This document shows, piece after piece, positions 1-20,389 of a stretch of DNA of 64,000 nt (positions are counted from its first letter, which is position 1; each line of letters begins with the position of its first letter). The position numbers and the translations under genes were made by a program. Source of the DNA: Candidatus Bathyarchaeota archaeon (GTDB taxonomy: Archaea > Thermoproteota > Bathyarchaeia > 40CM-2-53-6 > RBG-13-38-9); assembly GCA_963807605.1 (NCBI GenBank), contig CAWECG010000001.1:512001-576000 (forward strand). The letters are read 5' to 3'. The notes beneath the pieces are model-generated. The model was not told where the DNA came from and made no database searches. It worked only from the letters and a program-made list of their open reading frames with translations.

Positions 1-2610
1 TGCCCGCGCAGTGCGCTTCTTAAATTGATCTATGGGGCTTCTGGTGAAAGTGATGCAAGGTTTGCTATCGGGACTGTAACGCACTCCGTGCTCGCTGAGC
101 TTGGGCGCGTTGAGGCTACCATTGTAGATGAAACGGATCCCGCCTTGCCTGTCGATGTTGTTGCTCAGCAGGTCTATCAGCAATGGTTGGAGGCCGCAGA
201 GGCCAAGATCGCGGACTCCTGGCGACTCTTCGCAGATGCTCGTATAAGCGTGCGGGAGGGCAAGAACGCTGTTCTTGAGAGGCTCAACGGTTTCTCACGT
301 CACCTAGCCGAAGAGATCCTCGCAGGATATCGTAGGCCGGACAGAATCGTTACTGGTCATCACATTACGAATCTCGATCTACCGCTTCAAGGAATCCCTG
401 ATGAATATAGAGTGTACAGCAATCCGTTGCATATTGAGATTCGCGAATTCAAGAGCTATGGAGGCTCTGCAGTCAGTGAGACGAATAAGTTGCAAGCTTG
501 TGGATATCAGCTTCTGTTGGAACAGATCTATCCTGATGCTGATTTTACAATTAGAGTGCTTTCCACAGACGACATTGTCAATGTCCGAATGACTGACAGC
601 AGACGTAACAAGCTTCATCAAGGTATTGCTGCTTTGCAGGAGATCTACGAGACCGCTCGAGGATCTGCACGACCGATTCCTCAACTTTGCGAAGTCTGTT
701 CAGTCAATAACGCCTGCAAATATTACTTCAATGATAATCTGCCAAAGCATATCAGGAGGTACCTGTGGCGGCTACGGATGGAGACCTTGGAAGACAAAGG
801 ACAAGATCAAGAATGGAGGTGGAGGAGCAAGATTCTCCCTCTAAACGTGAGAGTCGAGTTAGGATACTCTGATGGCGGTTACAGCATATCTGAGAAACAA
901 CCACGCAGCGTCCGCCTCTCGAAGGTTGAACCCGTCAACAACTTCCTACCTGGAGATACAGTAATCGTTAGTGGCGGCGACCCGCTGGCGACACCAAACT
1001 TCACAGGCGAAGTCTCAGATTTGGAGGAGAAGTTCATAACAATCACACCATATGGCGATCTGCCTCTAGGTCTACCCGATGAAGGATTGACAATAGACCA
1101 TTATGATGTCGATCTAACACGCCGTCAGCTCAGATCCATAGACATAGTCCATCGGTCAACCGGTCGAGCTGGTGAACTTGTAAGGCGAATCCTAGGGATT
1201 GAGAGCCCAAGAAGCGCAACGACATCGGGGGTTATTGGTTTTCTTGGAGATCTCAATCAAGAACAACAACAGGCTGTGAGATTATCCATGAATGCCCCGG
1301 ATTTCGCGGTAGTCCTTGGGCCTCCAGGAACAGGTAAGACAGCTGTGATAGTAGAAATACTAGCGCAGCTTGCAAGAGAAGGAAAACGAGCTCTGGCCGT
1401 TTCGGTTACCAACACAGCGGTCGATAATATTGTTGAGAGGCTCCTCGATCAAGGACATAAGTTCGGTATTAGATTCGGAAACTGGTACAAGATCAGAGAG
1501 CGTGCACTTCAAGTTGCTCTGATAAACATAGTCACGAATGAGGAAGATCGTGCACTCGCAGCCGTTGAAAAGATGGGCACTGCAGCGGCAGTCCTGACCA
1601 CCTGCAGTAGCGCTTCGCTGGATCTTGTTAAAGCAGGGCGATTTGACGTAGTTCTATTCGAGGAGTCCAGTCAGATCAGAATGCAAGACGCTTTTGCAGC
1701 ACTTGTCCAAGGTGAAAAGGTAATCATAATAGGTGATGACAAACAGCTTTCCCCTGTCTCCCGACTTCACAAACAAGTGAGCAGCCTTCTCGAGATAGCT
1801 TTAGAGACATTGGAAAGGCATAATCTCAGTCAAGAGCTAGTAACTCAACTTAAGGTTCAATATAGGATGCAGAAACAGATTTGCGAACTTATAAATCGCA
1901 AATTCTATGGGGACACACTCCTATCATCGCCCACCATTGAAAAAAGACCCTCGCTCCCAACGCCAACTCAACTCACTGGCCTGCTGCAACTGGACAATGC
2001 TCTAGATCCAGATATTGCCGTCGCAGTAATCAATGTCGAGGGAATAGAGGAGTACCGTGGGCTTAGCGTCTTGAATCGTGCAAATCTCGAGGTTGATACA
2101 CGCCTTGTCAATTCTCTCAGGTCAGCTGGATTGACTTCGAGTCAGATAGGTTTGATTACCCCCTACAAGGAACAACAGCGACTACTCTCAGCGAATCTTG
2201 CTGATGTAGTCGATATTGGAACTGTTGACAGTTTCCAAGGCCAGGAAAGAGCTGTTGTGATTCTTGATCTTGTGAGGGCTAACCCTGAAAGGAATGTTGG
2301 ATTCACACTTGATCCTAATAGGCTGAACGTCGCTCTAAGTCGCGTGCGTGAGAAACTTATCATTGTAACCAATCTGCCGACCTTTCAGGGTCACGAACAA
2401 TTTGACCAGGTGATGGAGATAATCAGGTCACTGCCAGGCACATGCATGGAAGGAATAACAGCCAGGCAAATTGGAATACAACTACCAGAGTACCGAAGAA
2501 GAATCGAGATGCAAGTCACACCCAGAATGGTAGATGTCGTGAATGAACCAGAAGAGTTGCCTCCAACAGCACCCATTTCCCCAGCAGGAAACTACATCGA
2601 TGTCTACTAA
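1..2610 (+). CDS. Dna2-like protein: N-terminal Cas4/RecB-type Fe-S PD-(D/E)xK nuclease fused to SF1B (Upf1/Dna2) helicase; 5' end outside window
   Basis: Frame is open from base 1 (CPRS..). Nuclease motifs CPR, GTVTH, GIPD, EFK, QACGY and CxxCxxxxxC. Helicase motifs GPPGTGKT, TNTAVDN, EESSQ, GDDKQL, QYRM, TPY, TVDSFQGQE, RLNVALSR. Confidence 0.85.
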   Translation, partial: CPRSALLKLIYGASGESDARFAIGTVTHSVLAELGRVEATIVDETDPALPVDVVAQQVYQQWLEAAEAKIADSWRLFADARISVREGKNAVLERLNGFSRHLAEEILAGYRRPDRIVTGHHITNLDLPLQGIPDEYRVYSNPLHIEIREFKSYGGSAVSETNKLQACGYQLLLEQIYPDADFTIRVLSTDDIVNVRMTDSRRNKLHQGIAALQEIYETARGSARPIPQLCEVCSVNNACKYYFNDNLPKHIRRYLWRLRMETLEDKGQDQEWRWRSKILPLNVRVELGYSDGGYSISEKQPRSVRLSKVEPVNNFLPGDTVIVSGGDPLATPNFTGEVSDLEEKFITITPYGDLPLGLPDEGLTIDHYDVDLTRRQLRSIDIVHRSTGRAGELVRRILGIESPRSATTSGVIGFLGDLNQEQQQAVRLSMNAPDFAVVLGPPGTGKTAVIVEILAQLAREGKRALAVSVTNTAVDNIVERLLDQGHKFGIRFGNWYKIRERALQVALINIVTNEEDRALAAVEKMGTAAAVLTTCSSASLDLVKAGRFDVVLFEESSQIRMQDAFAALVQGEKVIIIGDDKQLSPVSRLHKQVSSLLEIALETLERHNLSQELVTQLKVQYRMQKQICELINRKFYGDTLLSSPTIEKRPSLPTPTQLTGLLQLDNALDPDIAVAVINVEGIEEYRGLSVLNRANLEVDTRLVNSLRSAGLTSSQIGLITPYKEQQRLLSANLADVVDIGTVDSFQGQERAVVILDLVRANPERNVGFTLDPNRLNVALSRVREKLIIVTNLPTFQGHEQFDQVMEIIRSLPGTCMEGITARQIGIQLPEYRRRIEMQVTPRMVDVVNEPEELPPTAPISPAGNYIDVY

Positions 2611-3883
2611 CAGCGCAAAACCTGATTTCAAATTCATCCATCTTGCTGATACACATTTGGGGCTTAATTGGCCCGCGATCGGAAGACACGAAAAGATCCA
2701 GATTCCTGTCTACGGAAAAGCCTTCGCAACGATAGTGGATGCTGCAATAGAGCAGCATGTTGACTTTGTCGTCCACGCGGGAGACCTCGTCGACCGACCT
2801 CGCCCCCCAACAACTGCTTGGAACAGACTCCTCCAAGAACTTCCAAGACTAAAAGAAGCTGAAATTCCCTTTATCATAACGGTTGGATCGCACGATAAAC
2901 CAGAATCGTACTTTGATAGAGCAGGCGGAGACGTCCTTCATCTGCTTGATTCAAGACTGGGTCTGGTGAGAAGGGTTGACACGGATCAGGATCCATTTGT
3001 AAACATCAACACGAAGGGCGGCAAGAAGGTCACAGTCTACGGTCTAGGTGATCATGGTCGAGAACAGGTGGAACACTTACAACAGCTAAGCAAGCACATG
3101 AATGAAGAAAACGATTTTAGCGTTCTTCTCATGCACGGATCAGTATCTTCAATATCGCCAGTAATCGGCCCCATTATCGAGACTGAGACAATTAGCCAAC
3201 TTCTATCCAAGAGATATGTAGACTATGTTGCACTAGGACACAATCACAAGAGATGGGAGCACAAAGACCTGCATATCTATAATCCAGGTTCTCCCGAGTA
3301 CACGAGTTTTGCCGATGCTCCGACAATAACATACGTGATAGATGGAACAACCCTGAAAGAAGATAGCCGAGAGCCAGCCGAACATGGCTACTACCTTGTA
3401 GAGGTTACAGGAGAAATTGTCAAAGCACAATTCAATACGCTGCCAACTAGAGATGTAAAGAATATCCAAGTGAGATTCAACAGGGCTTCACCTTCTCAAG
3501 TGATTGAAGGATCCAAAAAGGCAATCTCCCAGAATATGTCCGATTCAAGTATTATACGCCCTATCCTAAGAGGTACACTACATCCTTCCGCGTCCAGAAG
3601 TGAGATCGACATTCGCGAGATTCTAGCACTCAGGGAGAAAATACTATTCCTCGATTACCCACTAATCGATCTTGACGATGCCCCGGTTAAGATTCAGGCC
3701 GCGGAAGGATCCATTCAGCGGCTTTTCAATCAATATTTAGAATCTAAGCTAGGACAAAATGCTAAAGAAATCTCGGATATCGCGGTGAAGCTTCTAGAAC
3801 TCTACGCCCATAAGAGCAGGACAACGAATCAAGAAGCACTGAGCCTTATTGATGGGTGGCATCCAAATGATAAGAAGGCTTGA
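2600..3883 (+). CDS. mre11: Mre11/SbcD-family metallophosphoesterase nuclease
   Basis: Motifs DTH, GDLVD, GSHD, GHNH, NPGS; ATG at 2600 overlaps the helicase stop; adjacent to rad50. Confidence 0.85.
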   Translation: MSTNSAKPDFKFIHLADTHLGLNWPAIGRHEKIQIPVYGKAFATIVDAAIEQHVDFVVHAGDLVDRPRPPTTAWNRLLQELPRLKEAEIPFIITVGSHDKPESYFDRAGGDVLHLLDSRLGLVRRVDTDQDPFVNINTKGGKKVTVYGLGDHGREQVEHLQQLSKHMNEENDFSVLLMHGSVSSISPVIGPIIETETISQLLSKRYVDYVALGHNHKRWEHKDLHIYNPGSPEYTSFADAPTITYVIDGTTLKEDSREPAEHGYYLVEVTGEIVKAQFNTLPTRDVKNIQVRFNRASPSQVIEGSKKAISQNMSDSSIIRPILRGTLHPSASRSEIDIREILALREKILFLDYPLIDLDDAPVKIQAAEGSIQRLFNQYLESKLGQNAKEISDIAVKLLELYAHKSRTTNQEALSLIDGWHPNDKKA

Positions 3884-5969
3884 GCTGCGCAACTTCGCTA
3901 CACATCAAGATACGGAGATAGAGTTTGGAGGCGGAAAGAACGTCATCATTGGTGCGACAGGCTCAGGCAAGACAAATCTTCTGCAGGCATTGGACTTTGC
4001 CTTCATGGGTGAGGTGCCAGGAGCCAGCTTAGCAGAACTGGTTGCAGATAATTCTGATACAGCAGAAGTGATACTTGATTATGTCGAACCAAGAACAGGC
4101 CAGAACTATAGAATACACCGAATCTTGACTCGCGAAGCGGACGGAAAACTCAGCCATGAGTGCTCGCTGACAAATATCGATACTAACGAAACAGTCAAGA
4201 AACCGATACCTGTTCAGACGATGCTGGAAACACTTGGAGTCGTACCATCCGTATTTAGACATGTTATCCATGTCGCACAAGGAAGCTTCTCTGAGCTACT
4301 CGAAGAGACTCAAGAACGCAAGAATACTATGGATAGACTCTTCGAGATATCACAGCTTGAGATAGCTTATCAAGAACTGGGCCACCAAGGCGGCCCTATA
4401 AACCAGATAGATTTAAGAAAACACGGCAATCTCCAGAAGAAAAGCGGACTTGAAGCAATTGCCTCCACACTAGACAATGAGAGAACACTCCTTGGAAGAC
4501 TACTCAAGGAACGAAACGAAAAACAGTCAAATCTGCACGAAATCACGAAGGAACACGATAGACTCGAACAGACATCCAAAAAGAACTTGGAAACACTATC
4601 AGCACTTCAGCATCTCGAACAAAAAATTAGATTTGCAGGCGCCATCTTTGCAAGTAGCTTGGAACAAGAAAAAAGACTGACCTCAAAACTGCGTCAATTA
4701 CTCGCGGAGGAGATTTGCAACACAATAGAGAAGCAGACATCAACCGAAACCATGGCCTATCTTGGAACTGTCAAAGCAAATCTCAACAAACTACAAGCGG
4801 AAGTCAATTCTCTTAACGAAACCCATAGGCGGATTGTTGAACAGGTCGCCTCCAATCTATCACAAACTAATCTCACCTTAGAAGAGAAGACAAATGCCTC
4901 TAACCAGATAACTGTAATTCAGACATATCTGGAGGGTAAAGGCGAACAGCCGCAAATCGAATGTGACAAATGTGGCAGCCTACTCACCAAGAAACAATGG
5001 GAGAGGCACATCAAGGACAAACAGAAGGAATTGGATAGCCTCAAGAAGAAGATCACTGAACTCCGCGAGAAAAATGAGACAGACAAGAGCCTTGCTGACA
5101 ATTGCCTGAAGAAGCTGGAGGAAACTGACTCCAACGTTAGAAACCTTACGAATGTAGCTCTTTTGTTGGAACAACTTATCACACCACGTAAAGAACTCGA
5201 GAAAGCCTCAGTTTCTCAGACGCAACTAGAGTTAGACAGAGCCAAACTTGTTAATGAATTGAGGATCATGTTGCAAGCCGAACCCACAGCAGCCGATCAA
5301 GAGATCATGGATCAAGCCCTTACGCTTCGGCACAGGATTGAGACATTAACCAGACAAGTTTCCGACTTAACTAACGACTTGCAACGGTATGATGAGAATC
5401 ATCTGAAACCTCAAGAGAAGCGTGTCGCAGACGCACAGGAAGCAGTGGTTCAACTTAGGAAACTCGAACCTGAGATCAAACTAGATGAACAAAGAATATC
5501 ATTGCTGCAGATGATAAGAGCCGCTTTGAGAGAGATCCAACCTGCCGTACGAAGGAACTTCGTCTCAAGGATTACTCAAAGTGCGAATGATTACCTTGCA
5601 CGGCTTTATGGTGGTTCTGAGATACGGAACTTTGAACTTATGGATGACTATGAATTCTTTGTAACGAGGGCAGGATACAGGCGACACGCCAACAGGCTAA
5701 GCGGAGGTCAACAAGTCCTTGCAAGCATGGCATTCCTCCTAGCTCTGAGCGAAGTACTGAGCCAGCTAGATTTCCTCATTCTTGACGAACCAACAACACA
5801 CCTTGACACAAACAGAAGAATAGAGCTTGTAACAGTTCTCGAGAACCTGCGGCGCGTTCCCCAGCTCATAATAGTCGATCATCACCCAGAACTATTTGAG
5901 GCAGCGGACACGCGTTTTCGAATCTCACTTACCCCAGAGGGGCATAGTCAACTAGATCAGCTTAACTAG
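3867..5969 (+). CDS. rad50: Rad50/SbcC ABC-type ATPase with coiled coils and zinc hook
   Basis: Walker A GATGSGKT, Q-loop, central CDKC hook, signature LSGGQ, Walker B LILDEPT, H-switch; overlaps mre11 by 17 bp. Confidence 0.9.
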   Translation: MIRRLELRNFATHQDTEIEFGGGKNVIIGATGSGKTNLLQALDFAFMGEVPGASLAELVADNSDTAEVILDYVEPRTGQNYRIHRILTREADGKLSHECSLTNIDTNETVKKPIPVQTMLETLGVVPSVFRHVIHVAQGSFSELLEETQERKNTMDRLFEISQLEIAYQELGHQGGPINQIDLRKHGNLQKKSGLEAIASTLDNERTLLGRLLKERNEKQSNLHEITKEHDRLEQTSKKNLETLSALQHLEQKIRFAGAIFASSLEQEKRLTSKLRQLLAEEICNTIEKQTSTETMAYLGTVKANLNKLQAEVNSLNETHRRIVEQVASNLSQTNLTLEEKTNASNQITVIQTYLEGKGEQPQIECDKCGSLLTKKQWERHIKDKQKELDSLKKKITELREKNETDKSLADNCLKKLEETDSNVRNLTNVALLLEQLITPRKELEKASVSQTQLELDRAKLVNELRIMLQAEPTAADQEIMDQALTLRHRIETLTRQVSDLTNDLQRYDENHLKPQEKRVADAQEAVVQLRKLEPEIKLDEQRISLLQMIRAALREIQPAVRRNFVSRITQSANDYLARLYGGSEIRNFELMDDYEFFVTRAGYRRHANRLSGGQQVLASMAFLLALSEVLSQLDFLILDEPTTHLDTNRRIELVTVLENLRRVPQLIIVDHHPELFEAADTRFRISLTPEGHSQLDQLN

Positions 5970-5978
5970 CCTAACGTA

Positions 5979-6299
5979 CTATTTTCCCGCGTGCGCAGAA
6001 TGGTGCGGGGAGTGGGATTTGAAGCGAGTACGCCTTAGAGCAAGCATGGTAACTGTGAGCGAGGCCACGAGTGGGAAGATGTATATGGGATACTCTGGAA
6101 TCGGCGTTGAGCCCGCAAACGCATACACCTTACCATCATATGAGCCTACGTATACAACGGTTCCTGAAACAGCAGGAGAAGAATTGACGTTGTTGCCTGT
6201 TGTGTAACTCCATACCTTGGCTCCTGTAGTAGCATTCAACGCATACACATTATCATCCACTGAGCCTACGTACACGATACCTCCTGAAACAGCAGGAGA
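5979..6299 (-). pseudogene. 3' fragment of a PQQ-like beta-propeller surface protein with IPEYP-TM-basic C-terminal anchor
   Basis: Two SPAVxxGxVYVGSxDxxVYA repeats, then IPEYP, a hydrophobic stretch and RRTR. The reading frame loses homology exactly at the (CG)5 run 6300-6309. Confidence 0.75.
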
Positions 6300-6376
6300 C
6301 GCGCGCGCGTTCATGCATCGAAAATACAGCCGAATGTTACCTGACGAGCTATCATGATCACTCCTGTAAGCTAGCG

Positions 6377-6482
6377 GCGAGCGTAGCGAGCCGGTACTAA
6401 AAGAAAGAGAGGGTTTGGGAGATTCTTCTCCCAAATTGAGGGGGGAAGAGATTGTGTTTGTGCTCACCAAGGGGCACACAAC
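6377..6482 (-). repeat. TGGTGAG-box repeat, alpha arm (copy a); inverted partner of 8621-8788
   Basis: GCGAGCGTAGCGAGCC..AGAGAGGGTTTGGGAGATTCTTCTCCCAA..TGTGCTCACCAAGGGGCACACA matches the reverse complement of 8621-8788. Confidence 0.85.
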
Positions 6483-19284: not shown

Positions 19285-20389
19285 AGGGTTGTCCCGATAT
19301 TCTTTGAGTTGACACGGAAAGATCCATAAGGGTTGAGCCCCGCACCCTTCTACTTGGAGGAGATTCCAGATAGAAGGGTACGAGACTCTGGAGTCACTGC
19401 TGAGTAATCTGGATTTATCATTTGTTGAACGTCTAGTTGTTAGTTGCTATCATCAAGAAGGTCCAGGTAAACCTCCACGTAACCCTCTAGGACTCTTCAA
19501 GGCACACCTTGCCAGACGCTACCTCAGAATAAACAGTCTGCGTGAGCTTGAACGTCGCTTATGGATCGATGAGCGGCTACGTGACATATGCGACATAAGA
19601 TATGAGGAGCCAGCCTACGGTAGGACGGTACTCTCAAGATTCAACCAGCGACTAGGAACAAGAAGACTAAGACGCATAGTAAACAAACAGGTCAAGAAAT
19701 TACTGAAGAAGCGCTATGTAACACCAAGAATAGTTGCTATGGACGCCACCTTCATCAAAGCCTACAGCAGACGAAACATAAACAATAGAACAGGCTTCAG
19801 TGACCCTCAAGCACGTGTAGGAAGAGCCTACCGCACATACGGGTTAGGCTACAAACTACACCTAACAGTCGATACAGACACAGCCACACCCCTAACATTC
19901 CTAGTGACACCAGCAAACACTAACGAGAAGAAACCGAGCATACCACTCCTCAAAATGACAGTTAAAACCACAGCAACCAGAATCCGACAGCTAACCGCTG
20001 ACAGTCAATACTCCAGCAACAGACTCAGAGAGACCGCTAAAAAACACAGAATCAAGACCGCGATACCCTACCCAGCCAACCAGAAACCTGAAAGACAAAA
20101 CATCCTCAGAGTAACCAGCGACTTCAAAACACACGGCCCAGAAAACCTCAAACACATCTACAATAAACGCTCCATCATCGAGTTGGTCTTCGCATCACTC
20201 AAAGAACACCTCAACCTCAACAACCACAAGACACGAGGACTAGAAAACATCACCATCCACATCAGCTACTGCATACTATGCCTCCTCTACACCATAGAAG
20301 CCTCACACAACACCAAACAACCCACCAAAACCAGAAGCATAACCTACTGGACAAACCTAACATGAAAACGCTAATAACGGGACAACCCC
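19285..20389 (+). mobile_element. Insertion sequence (IS5/IS1182-like DDE), ~1105 bp, 16-bp TIRs, inserted in a (GC)n site
   Basis: Left GGGTTGTCCCGATATT (19286-19301); right AATAACGGGACAACCC (20373-20388); flanked on both sides by GCGCGC. Confidence 0.9.
19370..20365 (+). CDS. DDE transposase (~331 aa; DUF772-like N-terminus + DDE_Tnp_1)
   Basis: Frame open from 19337; SLRELERRL..LSRF N-terminal domain, DAT, GYKLH, ADSQY, YxxRxxIExxF; possible ATA start at 19370 after GGAGG. Confidence 0.85.
   Translation: MEGYETLESLLSNLDLSFVERLVVSCYHQEGPGKPPRNPLGLFKAHLARRYLRINSLRELERRLWIDERLRDICDIRYEEPAYGRTVLSRFNQRLGTRRLRRIVNKQVKKLLKKRYVTPRIVAMDATFIKAYSRRNINNRTGFSDPQARVGRAYRTYGLGYKLHLTVDTDTATPLTFLVTPANTNEKKPSIPLLKMTVKTTATRIRQLTADSQYSSNRLRETAKKHRIKTAIPYPANQKPERQNILRVTSDFKTHGPENLKHIYNKRSIIELVFASLKEHLNLNNHKTRGLENITIHISYCILCLLYTIEASHNTKQPTKTRSITYWTNLT

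Follow-up and report, generated by a model that had tools for sequence, protein, structure and literature searches.

A conserved three-gene operon joining a Dna2-like nuclease-helicase to Mre11 and Rad50 in Bathyarchaeia

The window analyzed here is a stretch of 64,000 nucleotides (nt) from Candidatus Bathyarchaeota archaeon (assembly GCA_963807605.1, contig CAWECG010000001.1, forward strand; G000:C1:512001-576000, where G000 is the window's own genome). It opens with three co-directional open reading frames (ORFs) on the + strand, at 1-2610 (open at the 5' end), 2543/2600-3883 and 3849/3867-5969, which encode a nuclease-helicase, Mre11 and Rad50, respectively. The first gene starts before the window, with a GTG at G000:C1:511884 (the first ATG is codon 6), and ends at 514610; the first codon of the window is that of Cys40, the first of four predicted iron-sulfur (Fe-S) cysteines. 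The initial annotation had described three ORFs with overlaps of 11 and 17 bp, and these figures are exact when ATG 2600 and ATG 3867 are taken as starts. The genes, their domains and their junctions are located in the window as follows.

1-2610, + strand: nuclease-helicase gene, 5' end cut by the window (full gene G000:C1:511884-514610, 908 amino acids)
1-780, + strand: Cas4/RecB-type PD-(D/E)xK nuclease domain with four cysteines (Pfam PDDEXK_1 and Cas4); Cys40 at 1-3, D173 within 397-408, ExK within 439-456, QxxxY within 493-510, CxxCx5C at 688-717
781-1215, + strand: linker from nuclease to motor, a probable 1B-like barrel; the alignment pairs residues 339-437 with IGHMBP2 66-168, taken to be the 1B barrel of that protein
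1216-2418, + strand: superfamily 1B (SF1B) helicase core of Upf1/Dna2/IGHMBP2 type (AAA_11/AAA_12; PDB profile matches to IGHMBP2 and Dna2); Walker A GPPGTGKT at 1318-1341, motif II EESSQ at 1660-1674
2419-2610, + strand: C-terminal tail past the helicase, with conserved LPxYR and terminal YxDxY-like motifs (invariant columns of the alignment)
2600-2610, + strand: 11-nt overlap of the nuclease-helicase stop (TAA ending at 2610) with the Mre11 ATG
2600-3883, + strand: Mre11, 427 amino acids from ATG 2600 (a further in-frame ATG lies upstream at 2543); GSHD motif III within 2879-2902
3867-3883, + strand: 17-nt overlap of the Mre11 stop (TGA ending at 3883) with the Rad50 ATG; GGGTGG 9 nt before the ATG
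3867-5969, + strand: Rad50, 700 amino acids from ATG 3867 (alternative TTG at 3849), with Walker A, Q-loop and H-loop present; CDKC zinc hook at 4962-4973, LSGGQ signature within 5694-5717, Walker B within 5772-5798

The same arrangement is found in many other sequences. A word-index protein search listed 49 clusters at 48% identity or more, mostly full length, and the next matches, at 31%, covered the helicase only. We compared 64 loci, 8 from genomes and 56 from metagenomes, some of which are near-duplicates from similar samples. Mre11 follows the nuclease-helicase in 50 of the 53 loci that have at least 300 bp of DNA past the nuclease-helicase match, and Rad50 comes next in 44 of the 47 with at least 1700 bp of downstream DNA; in the three exceptions (L095, L104 and L047) the nuclease-helicase gene is itself truncated or broken. 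Gene order is constant (nuclease-helicase, Mre11, Rad50), stop-start overlaps or gaps of at most 8 nt recur at the relatives' junctions, and the identities of the three proteins drop in step across loci (79/75/69, 66/60/50 and 49/41/35%). Since the same three genes recur in the same order at these frequencies, the arrangement is not due to chance, and the three genes are a conserved, tightly coupled unit. The initial annotation had made its reading depend on conservation of the trio in other genomes, and these counts bear out that conservation. On the most divergent branch (L096 and L099; 49% identity), a 113-amino acid ORF with no significant Pfam match lies between the nuclease-helicase and Mre11 genes (L096 10848-11189; also in L099).

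Such regularity is hard to reconcile with three neighbors of independent function, the first of them an RNA helicase of the Upf1/IGHMBP2 kind. IGHMBP2 is indeed among the best PDB and NCBIfam sequence matches of the helicase, and its best PADLOC match is the MkoA helicase, as this view would have it. However, the near-perfect synteny, the overlapping genes, the co-varying divergence and the conservation of a fused DNA-type Fe-S nuclease all argue the other way, and we regard the idea of independent neighbors as already disfavored and very improbable.

The domain content of the first protein is clear from Pfam, with matches to PDDEXK_1 (E 1.6e-8) and Cas4 (E 1.8e-4) over the first ~280 residues, followed by AAA_11 (E 2.4e-27) and AAA_12 (E 7.4e-42), which correspond to an SF1B core of the Upf1/Dna2 type; a UvrD-helicase match is restricted to residues 418-510, around Walker A (E 4.9e-7). 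Across an alignment of 25 family members, nuclease residues D173, E188, K190, Q204 and Y208 are invariant, as are C269, C272 and C278, the Walker A sequence GPPGTGKT and motif II, EE(A/S)SQ, and C40 is conserved in at least 90%. When 16 nuclease domains are aligned, neither the four cysteines nor the nuclease motif residues vary. The cysteines match the iron-staple pattern (one N-terminal, then CxxCx5C) and are predicted to bind an Fe-S cluster, and the conserved tail beyond the helicase is a candidate docking peptide. Both Pfam and motif conservation agree with the Dna2 architecture proposed in the initial annotation, that is, a Cas4/RecB-type four-cysteine nuclease ahead of an SF1B helicase. 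The motifs it had named (C..CxxCx5C and EESSQ here, GSHD in Mre11) are likewise present, and so is the CDKC hook of Rad50.

The relationship to eukaryotic Dna2 is limited to this layout. A family profile searched against the PDB matched IGHMBP2 (224.9 bits) and mouse Dna2 (206.1 bits), both through the helicase only, and a profile of the nuclease domain had no match among PDB sequences at E<=10. The Pfam Dna2 nuclease model, PF08696, did not match the protein at E<=0.01, and one family member (P0046) among the 49 listed carries it in the precomputed table. In a FastTree phylogeny of 74 cut helicase cores, in which deeper forks are without resolution, the family forms its own long-stemmed clade (support 100) that falls outside both the eukaryotic Dna2 clade (8 rows, support 99) and the IGHMBP2-like clade (99). 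When the nuclease profile was aligned with hhalign to eight eukaryotic Dna2 sequences, the match was non-significant (probability 2.9%, E 0.015), with the CPR cysteine, GT..H, catalytic D, ExK, QxxxY and CxxCx5C in register with the eukaryotic alignment. By ESM features, which we treat as a lead only, the nearest clusters beyond the protein's own are those of eukaryotic DNA2. The nuclease-helicase is Dna2-like in layout and apparently not a eukaryotic-type Dna2 orthologue. The suggestion that the module is eukaryote-like holds for the layout only: the helicase clade is separate from that of eukaryotic Dna2, and the protein does not reach PF08696.

A different three-gene operon occurs in another Bathyarchaeia genome (G038:C11; L159 9629-17363, minus strand), where a UvrD-like helicase (675 amino acids), an SMC/Rad50-like ATPase (841 amino acids) and a Dna2-like protein (973 amino acids) are encoded and no Mre11 was seen. 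The last of these proteins reaches PF08696 (32.7 bits), and a full-length hhalign comparison, nuclease included, aligns it with the first protein of our trio at a probability of 100 over 740 columns and 28% identity.

The second and third proteins retain the motifs of their families. Mre11 matches Pfam Metallophos (E 1.8e-16), and the residues of the calcineurin-type phosphoesterase motifs I-V (D17, H19, G61, D62, G96, H98, H179, H214 and H216) do not vary among 25 sequences, with D99 conserved in at least 90% of them; motif III reads GSHD. Rad50 matches SMC_N, AAA_23 and SbcC_Walker_B, and its Walker A, Q-loop, LSGGQ, Walker B DE, H-loop and hook cysteines (C372/C375) are kept in at least 97% of 37 family sequences. 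The best NCBIfam match of the trio Mre11 is Mre11_Sulfo, at 110.5 bits, below the equivalog cut-off of 500, and Rad50 scores 159.3 bits against a cut-off of 700. Proteins encoded in canonical nurA-herA-mre11-rad50 clusters of Bathyarchaeia likewise fall under these cut-offs (81-101 bits for Mre11, 163-165 bits for Rad50). Canonical Mre11 in these clusters also reads GSHD and the Rad50 there is 675-731 amino acids long, so GSHD and a short Rad50 are lineage traits. In an Mre11 tree, the trio Mre11 clade (100) is separate from cluster-linked Bathyarchaeia Mre11 (99), to which it is 20-22% identical, and from the SbcD-like protein of G000. We had considered that the trio Mre11 might be a recent duplicate of the canonical Bathyarchaeia protein, and rejected this on account of the two separate clades.

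Is the trio pair then the genome's principal Mre11-Rad50 or a spare? A second pair does exist in G000, in which the initial annotation had proposed to look for a canonical one, at C3:364973-368651 (L019 8973-12651). It consists of proteins of 391 amino acids (GNHE) and 837 amino acids (CPVC hook) whose genes overlap by 11 nt, and is of the SbcCD type: the smaller protein scores 85.4 bits with the SbcD model, above the cut-off of 77.65. No close orthologue of this pair was found among 40 relatives (best 33-36% identity). Against archaeal Mre11/Rad50 models, the trio pair outscores the SbcCD-like one. GSHD, EESSQ and the shortness of Rad50 therefore do not support the view of the trio as a divergent second copy, given that canonical Bathyarchaeia share GSHD and the Rad50 length and that the trio pair scores better.

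The partners with which archaeal Mre11-Rad50 is usually encoded were sought as well. Complete nurA-herA-mre11-rad50 clusters are found in Bathyarchaeia (G321:C16, G099:C1 and G013:C12), and no such cluster was found in G000 by searches that included tblastn with relatives' proteins. As to the initial annotation's proposal to look for herA and nurA upstream, the 11 kb before the trio and the 28 kb after it contain neither gene, and a stand-alone NurA-like/HerA-like pair is present elsewhere, at G000:C4:589914-592466, with 76-88% identity to its counterparts in family relatives. The NurA-like protein of this pair was missed by the Pfam NurA search, a false negative, and recovered by tblastn with relatives' proteins. 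The cluster-type HerA of G321, used as a single query, matched 5 of 41 relatives; it is not a general detector, and its negatives in trio carriers say little. All carriers examined retain the stand-alone pair, and we accordingly rejected the notion that the trio simply replaces a missing HerA-NurA. On the same contig (G000:C4:112678-116230; L020 6678-10230), the SMC gene ahead of scpA appears as two overlapping frames, of 956 amino acids (head and hinge) and 237 amino acids (C-terminal head), reflecting a frameshift or a sequencing error.

To compare carriers with their relatives, we surveyed Mre11 with the Mre11_Sulfo model (E<=1e-5) in 13 trio-bearing genomes and 37 non-trio relatives. An Mre11 besides that of the trio is present in 5 of the 13 carriers (2 of them NurA-linked), and any Mre11 in 30 of the 37 relatives (Fisher p 0.011, uncorrected for kinship). 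The cassette would thus be the sole archaeal-type Mre11-Rad50 in most carriers, G000 included, and hence seems to substitute for the nurA-herA-mre11-rad50 operon. Overall, this distribution suggests that the trio usually takes the place of the canonical cluster.

With the domains, motif conservation, synteny and distribution established by observation, we propose that the three proteins form one DNA-end resection machine, in which Mre11-Rad50 is combined with a Dna2-style nuclease-motor in a self-contained cassette. We give this reading a probability of roughly 0.55; it offers what is probably the most economical mechanism, by analogy with addBA-sbcDC and herA-nurA-mre11-rad50. Mre11-Rad50, with its ATPase, zinc hook and Mre11 phosphoesterase motifs intact, would find and open DNA ends, after which the Dna2-like enzyme would take up the resulting 5' single strand and thread it through the Fe-S nuclease domain. 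The SF1B motor would run 5' to 3' while the nuclease cuts, leaving a 3' tail for RadA; in support of this polarity, the proteins most similar to the helicase, IGHMBP2 and Dna2, are SF1B enzymes that work 5'-3'. The overlapping stop and start codons suggest joint production of the three proteins, and the cassette would move between Bathyarchaeia lineages. The enzymatic activities, the polarity, formation of a physical complex and a role in homologous recombination are all predictions from sequence. A bolder version, which we consider doubtful, would add the trio to RecBCD/AddAB and HerA-NurA as a third class of resection holoenzyme, assembled independently, with a Dna2-type nuclease-motor docked on Mre11-Rad50 (perhaps via the conserved C-terminal tail) and repeatedly displacing herA-nurA-mre11-rad50 in archaea, Bathyarchaeia among them.

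A number of observations weigh against a resection machine that stands in for the canonical one. In two genomes, G321 and G099, the trio coexists with a complete nurA-herA-mre11-rad50 cluster, and the stand-alone NurA-like/HerA-like pair kept by carriers means that HerA-NurA is not wholly missing from them. When NurA-linked Mre11 alone is counted (in the non-trio relatives, NurA within 4 kb of Mre11), the difference between carriers (2 of 13) and relatives (at least 15 of 37) is not significant (Fisher p 0.17, again without correction for kinship). The family is patchy, being present in 4 of the 41 nearest relatives and 12 of 401 sampled genomes of the class, and the genomes of its carriers are the larger ones (median 2.3 Mb, n=13, vs 1.5 Mb, n=37, in rounded sizes); both features look accessory rather than core. 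The C1 peptidase gene upstream of the trio was found in none of 15 family relatives, which makes this flank strain-specific, and some loci adjoin restriction-modification genes, integrases, HNH genes, stand-alone Cas4, or a UvrD helicase with a PD-(D/E)xK nuclease.

Some of these features also fit an accessory immune module. In this alternative, the trio would spread as such a module and act in defense against mobile elements, like bacterial RecBCD, with Mre11-Rad50 recognizing invading linear DNA by its ends, free or hairpin, and the Dna2-like enzyme degrading that DNA. Its patchy distribution and the larger genomes of its carriers fit such a role, as do the decayed copies at L046, L047, L048, L095 and L104 and flanks that include type I and Eco57I-like restriction-modification genes, integrases, HNH genes, stand-alone Cas4, Schlafen/EVE domains and a phage metallopeptidase. 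A precedent may be Bad, a DNA2-like protein that, in the available text of its description, always lies beside a type III-like methyltransferase and for which the authors suggest a role in restriction (PMC7430649). On the other hand, no PADLOC model fits the trio: in PADLOC-DB 2.0, matches to MkoA, Cas4, mad3 and LmuB cover only generic domains (helicase, Cas4 and ABC-ATPase parts) and Mre11 has 0 matches. A match to an already described defense system, which would have counted against the reading in the initial annotation, was thus not found in that database. Viral contigs yielded zero family members, and their 31 weak matches (21-47% identity) all lie in the Walker A/helicase N-terminal region. 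Flanks are mostly metabolic or housekeeping, carriers are mostly without another Mre11, and part of the apparent decay may be assembly error. Frameshifted or stop-containing copies also occur in G303, G333 and G027, and some of what looks like decay may stem from indel errors in low-contig assemblies. We consider defense a possible but distinctly less probable function, and between repair and defense the evidence leans to repair.

The range of the family is narrow as well as patchy. Source names of the listed clusters, where given, are all Bathyarchaeia; a sample of 401 genomes from the phylum returned G000 itself and one helicase-only match, and a single-protein scan of genome contigs returned one unrelated match only. 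The trio family is thus confined to Bathyarchaeia and scattered within them.

Eukaryotic Dna2 also works on flaps and forks, and it is conceivable that the trio is associated with replication rather than double-strand-break resection, the Dna2-like enzyme trimming long flaps or reversed forks and Mre11-Rad50 acting at stalled forks. For a Dna2-like protein of Pyrococcus, the available text reports that RPA was pulled down with it and proposes a pathway acting on flaps (PMC3820547); in two flanks of the trio there are Cdc6 fragments and a PolB gene. Yet a factor of that kind should be universal in its lineage, which the count of 12 in 401 class genomes belies, and no replication gene is a conserved neighbor. 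We find a replication function improbable.

Neighborhoods vary from locus to locus, and many of the flanking genes are metabolic or housekeeping ones, among them alcohol dehydrogenase, peptidases, thermosome, ribosomal protein L3 and a RadA fragment. In 9 of the 64 loci (L041, L044, L046, L056, L058, L059, L062, L063 and L081), a gene for a metallo-beta-lactamase (MBL)-fold nuclease (some beta-CASP/RMMBL) is no more than four genes away from the trio; a pair of UvrD-like helicase and PD-(D/E)xK nuclease recurs in 6 loci, and Hjc-related endonucleases in 3. In the window, the trio is flanked by metabolic genes. Its 5' side consists of a 450-nt AT-rich spacer followed by the divergent C1 peptidase gene. 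Within the spacer (G000:C1:511490-511620; L002 11490-11620) there are three copies of T(A/G)(G/T/A)TAAGGCTTGT and several inverted repeats containing AAGCTT, which together may be regulator sites. Further upstream, before the window, an amino-acid permease is seemingly split into frames of 378 and 81 amino acids (L002 7872-9344). Downstream, a pyrroloquinoline quinone (PQQ) beta-propeller ORF at 5979-6479 looks like a fragment, and a DDE transposase (DDE_Tnp_1) lies at 19739-20365, 14 kb 3' of the trio.

As taught, break repair in archaea relies on Mre11-Rad50 with HerA-NurA, and in eukaryotes on MRN with Dna2 or Exo1. An archaeal operon that wires a Dna2-style enzyme to Mre11-Rad50 would offer a compact three-protein system that could be reconstituted and compared with HerA-NurA, and in which the cooperation of a Mre11-Rad50 complex with a 5'-3' nuclease-motor could be studied. 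It also offers a testable function for the sporadic DNA2-like proteins of prokaryotes. How one resection arrangement gave way to the other is a question raised in the accessible part of a 2026 review of NurA (PMC13748450). If the trio turns out to serve immunity, archaea would have in it an equivalent of the anti-phage role of RecBCD; should it prove to be a third class of holoenzyme, the eukaryotic division of labor between MRN and Dna2 would already have been tried out in archaea. Our literature search found no paper on a Dna2-like gene linked to archaeal mre11-rad50, with the proviso that figures S1-S3 of one study (PMC7430649), which lay outside the search, may list family members. The trio is real and conserved, and as a three-gene operon it is apparently undescribed; the systems it resembles are compared below.

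In eukaryotes, the genes for Dna2 and MRN are unlinked, and Dna2 needs Sgs1/BLM and RPA. Eukaryotic Dna2, which acts after MRN/MRX and is represented by the mouse structure 5EAN, shares with the trio protein an Fe-S PD-(D/E)xK nuclease, a linker and an SF1B helicase in that order, and differs in its length of 1050-1450 amino acids, compared with about 900. Two prokaryotic proteins were compared by their published descriptions only, to the extent that these are available: Bad, a sporadic bacterial DNA2-like helicase-nuclease of Geobacillus (PMC7430649), and PAB0067, a Pyrococcus Dna2-like protein of 1308 amino acids that interacts with RPA (PMC3820547). Both have the Dna2 layout, the four Fe-S cysteines and a sporadic distribution, as does the trio protein. 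However, Bad adjoins a methyltransferase and not Mre11-Rad50, and for the longer PAB0067 linkage to Mre11-Rad50 goes unmentioned in the available text. The accessible portion of a phylogenomic study of Cas4 covers UvrD-Cas4 fusions and does not mention Rad50/SbcC (PMC5704561).

One close parallel, in gene order, is bacterial. In Bacillus subtilis, addB-addA-sbcD-sbcC is described as a putative repair operon in the available text (PMC1533848), and there too a helicase-nuclease is followed by the Mre11 homologue (sbcD) and then the Rad50 homologue (sbcC). AddB bears an iron-staple RecB-type nuclease, as the trio protein does (PMC7430649, in the part available). In contrast to AddAB, which is built of two subunits with UvrD-like superfamily 1A (SF1A) helicase character, the trio encodes one Upf1/Dna2-like SF1B polypeptide, and it does so in an archaeal host and with a patchy distribution. 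Another close parallel is the archaeal herA-nurA-mre11-rad50 operon of Sulfolobus and Pyrococcus, the sole arrangement for archaeal Mre11-Rad50 that is described in the accessible text of two reviews (PMC8708640, PMC13748450). In both operons, Mre11 and Rad50 are co-encoded with a motor and a nuclease for the 5' strand, and the presumed product is a 3' tail. Where that operon pairs a hexameric HerA ATPase with the RNase-H-fold NurA, the trio has one polypeptide in which an SF1B helicase and a PD-(D/E)xK Fe-S nuclease are fused.

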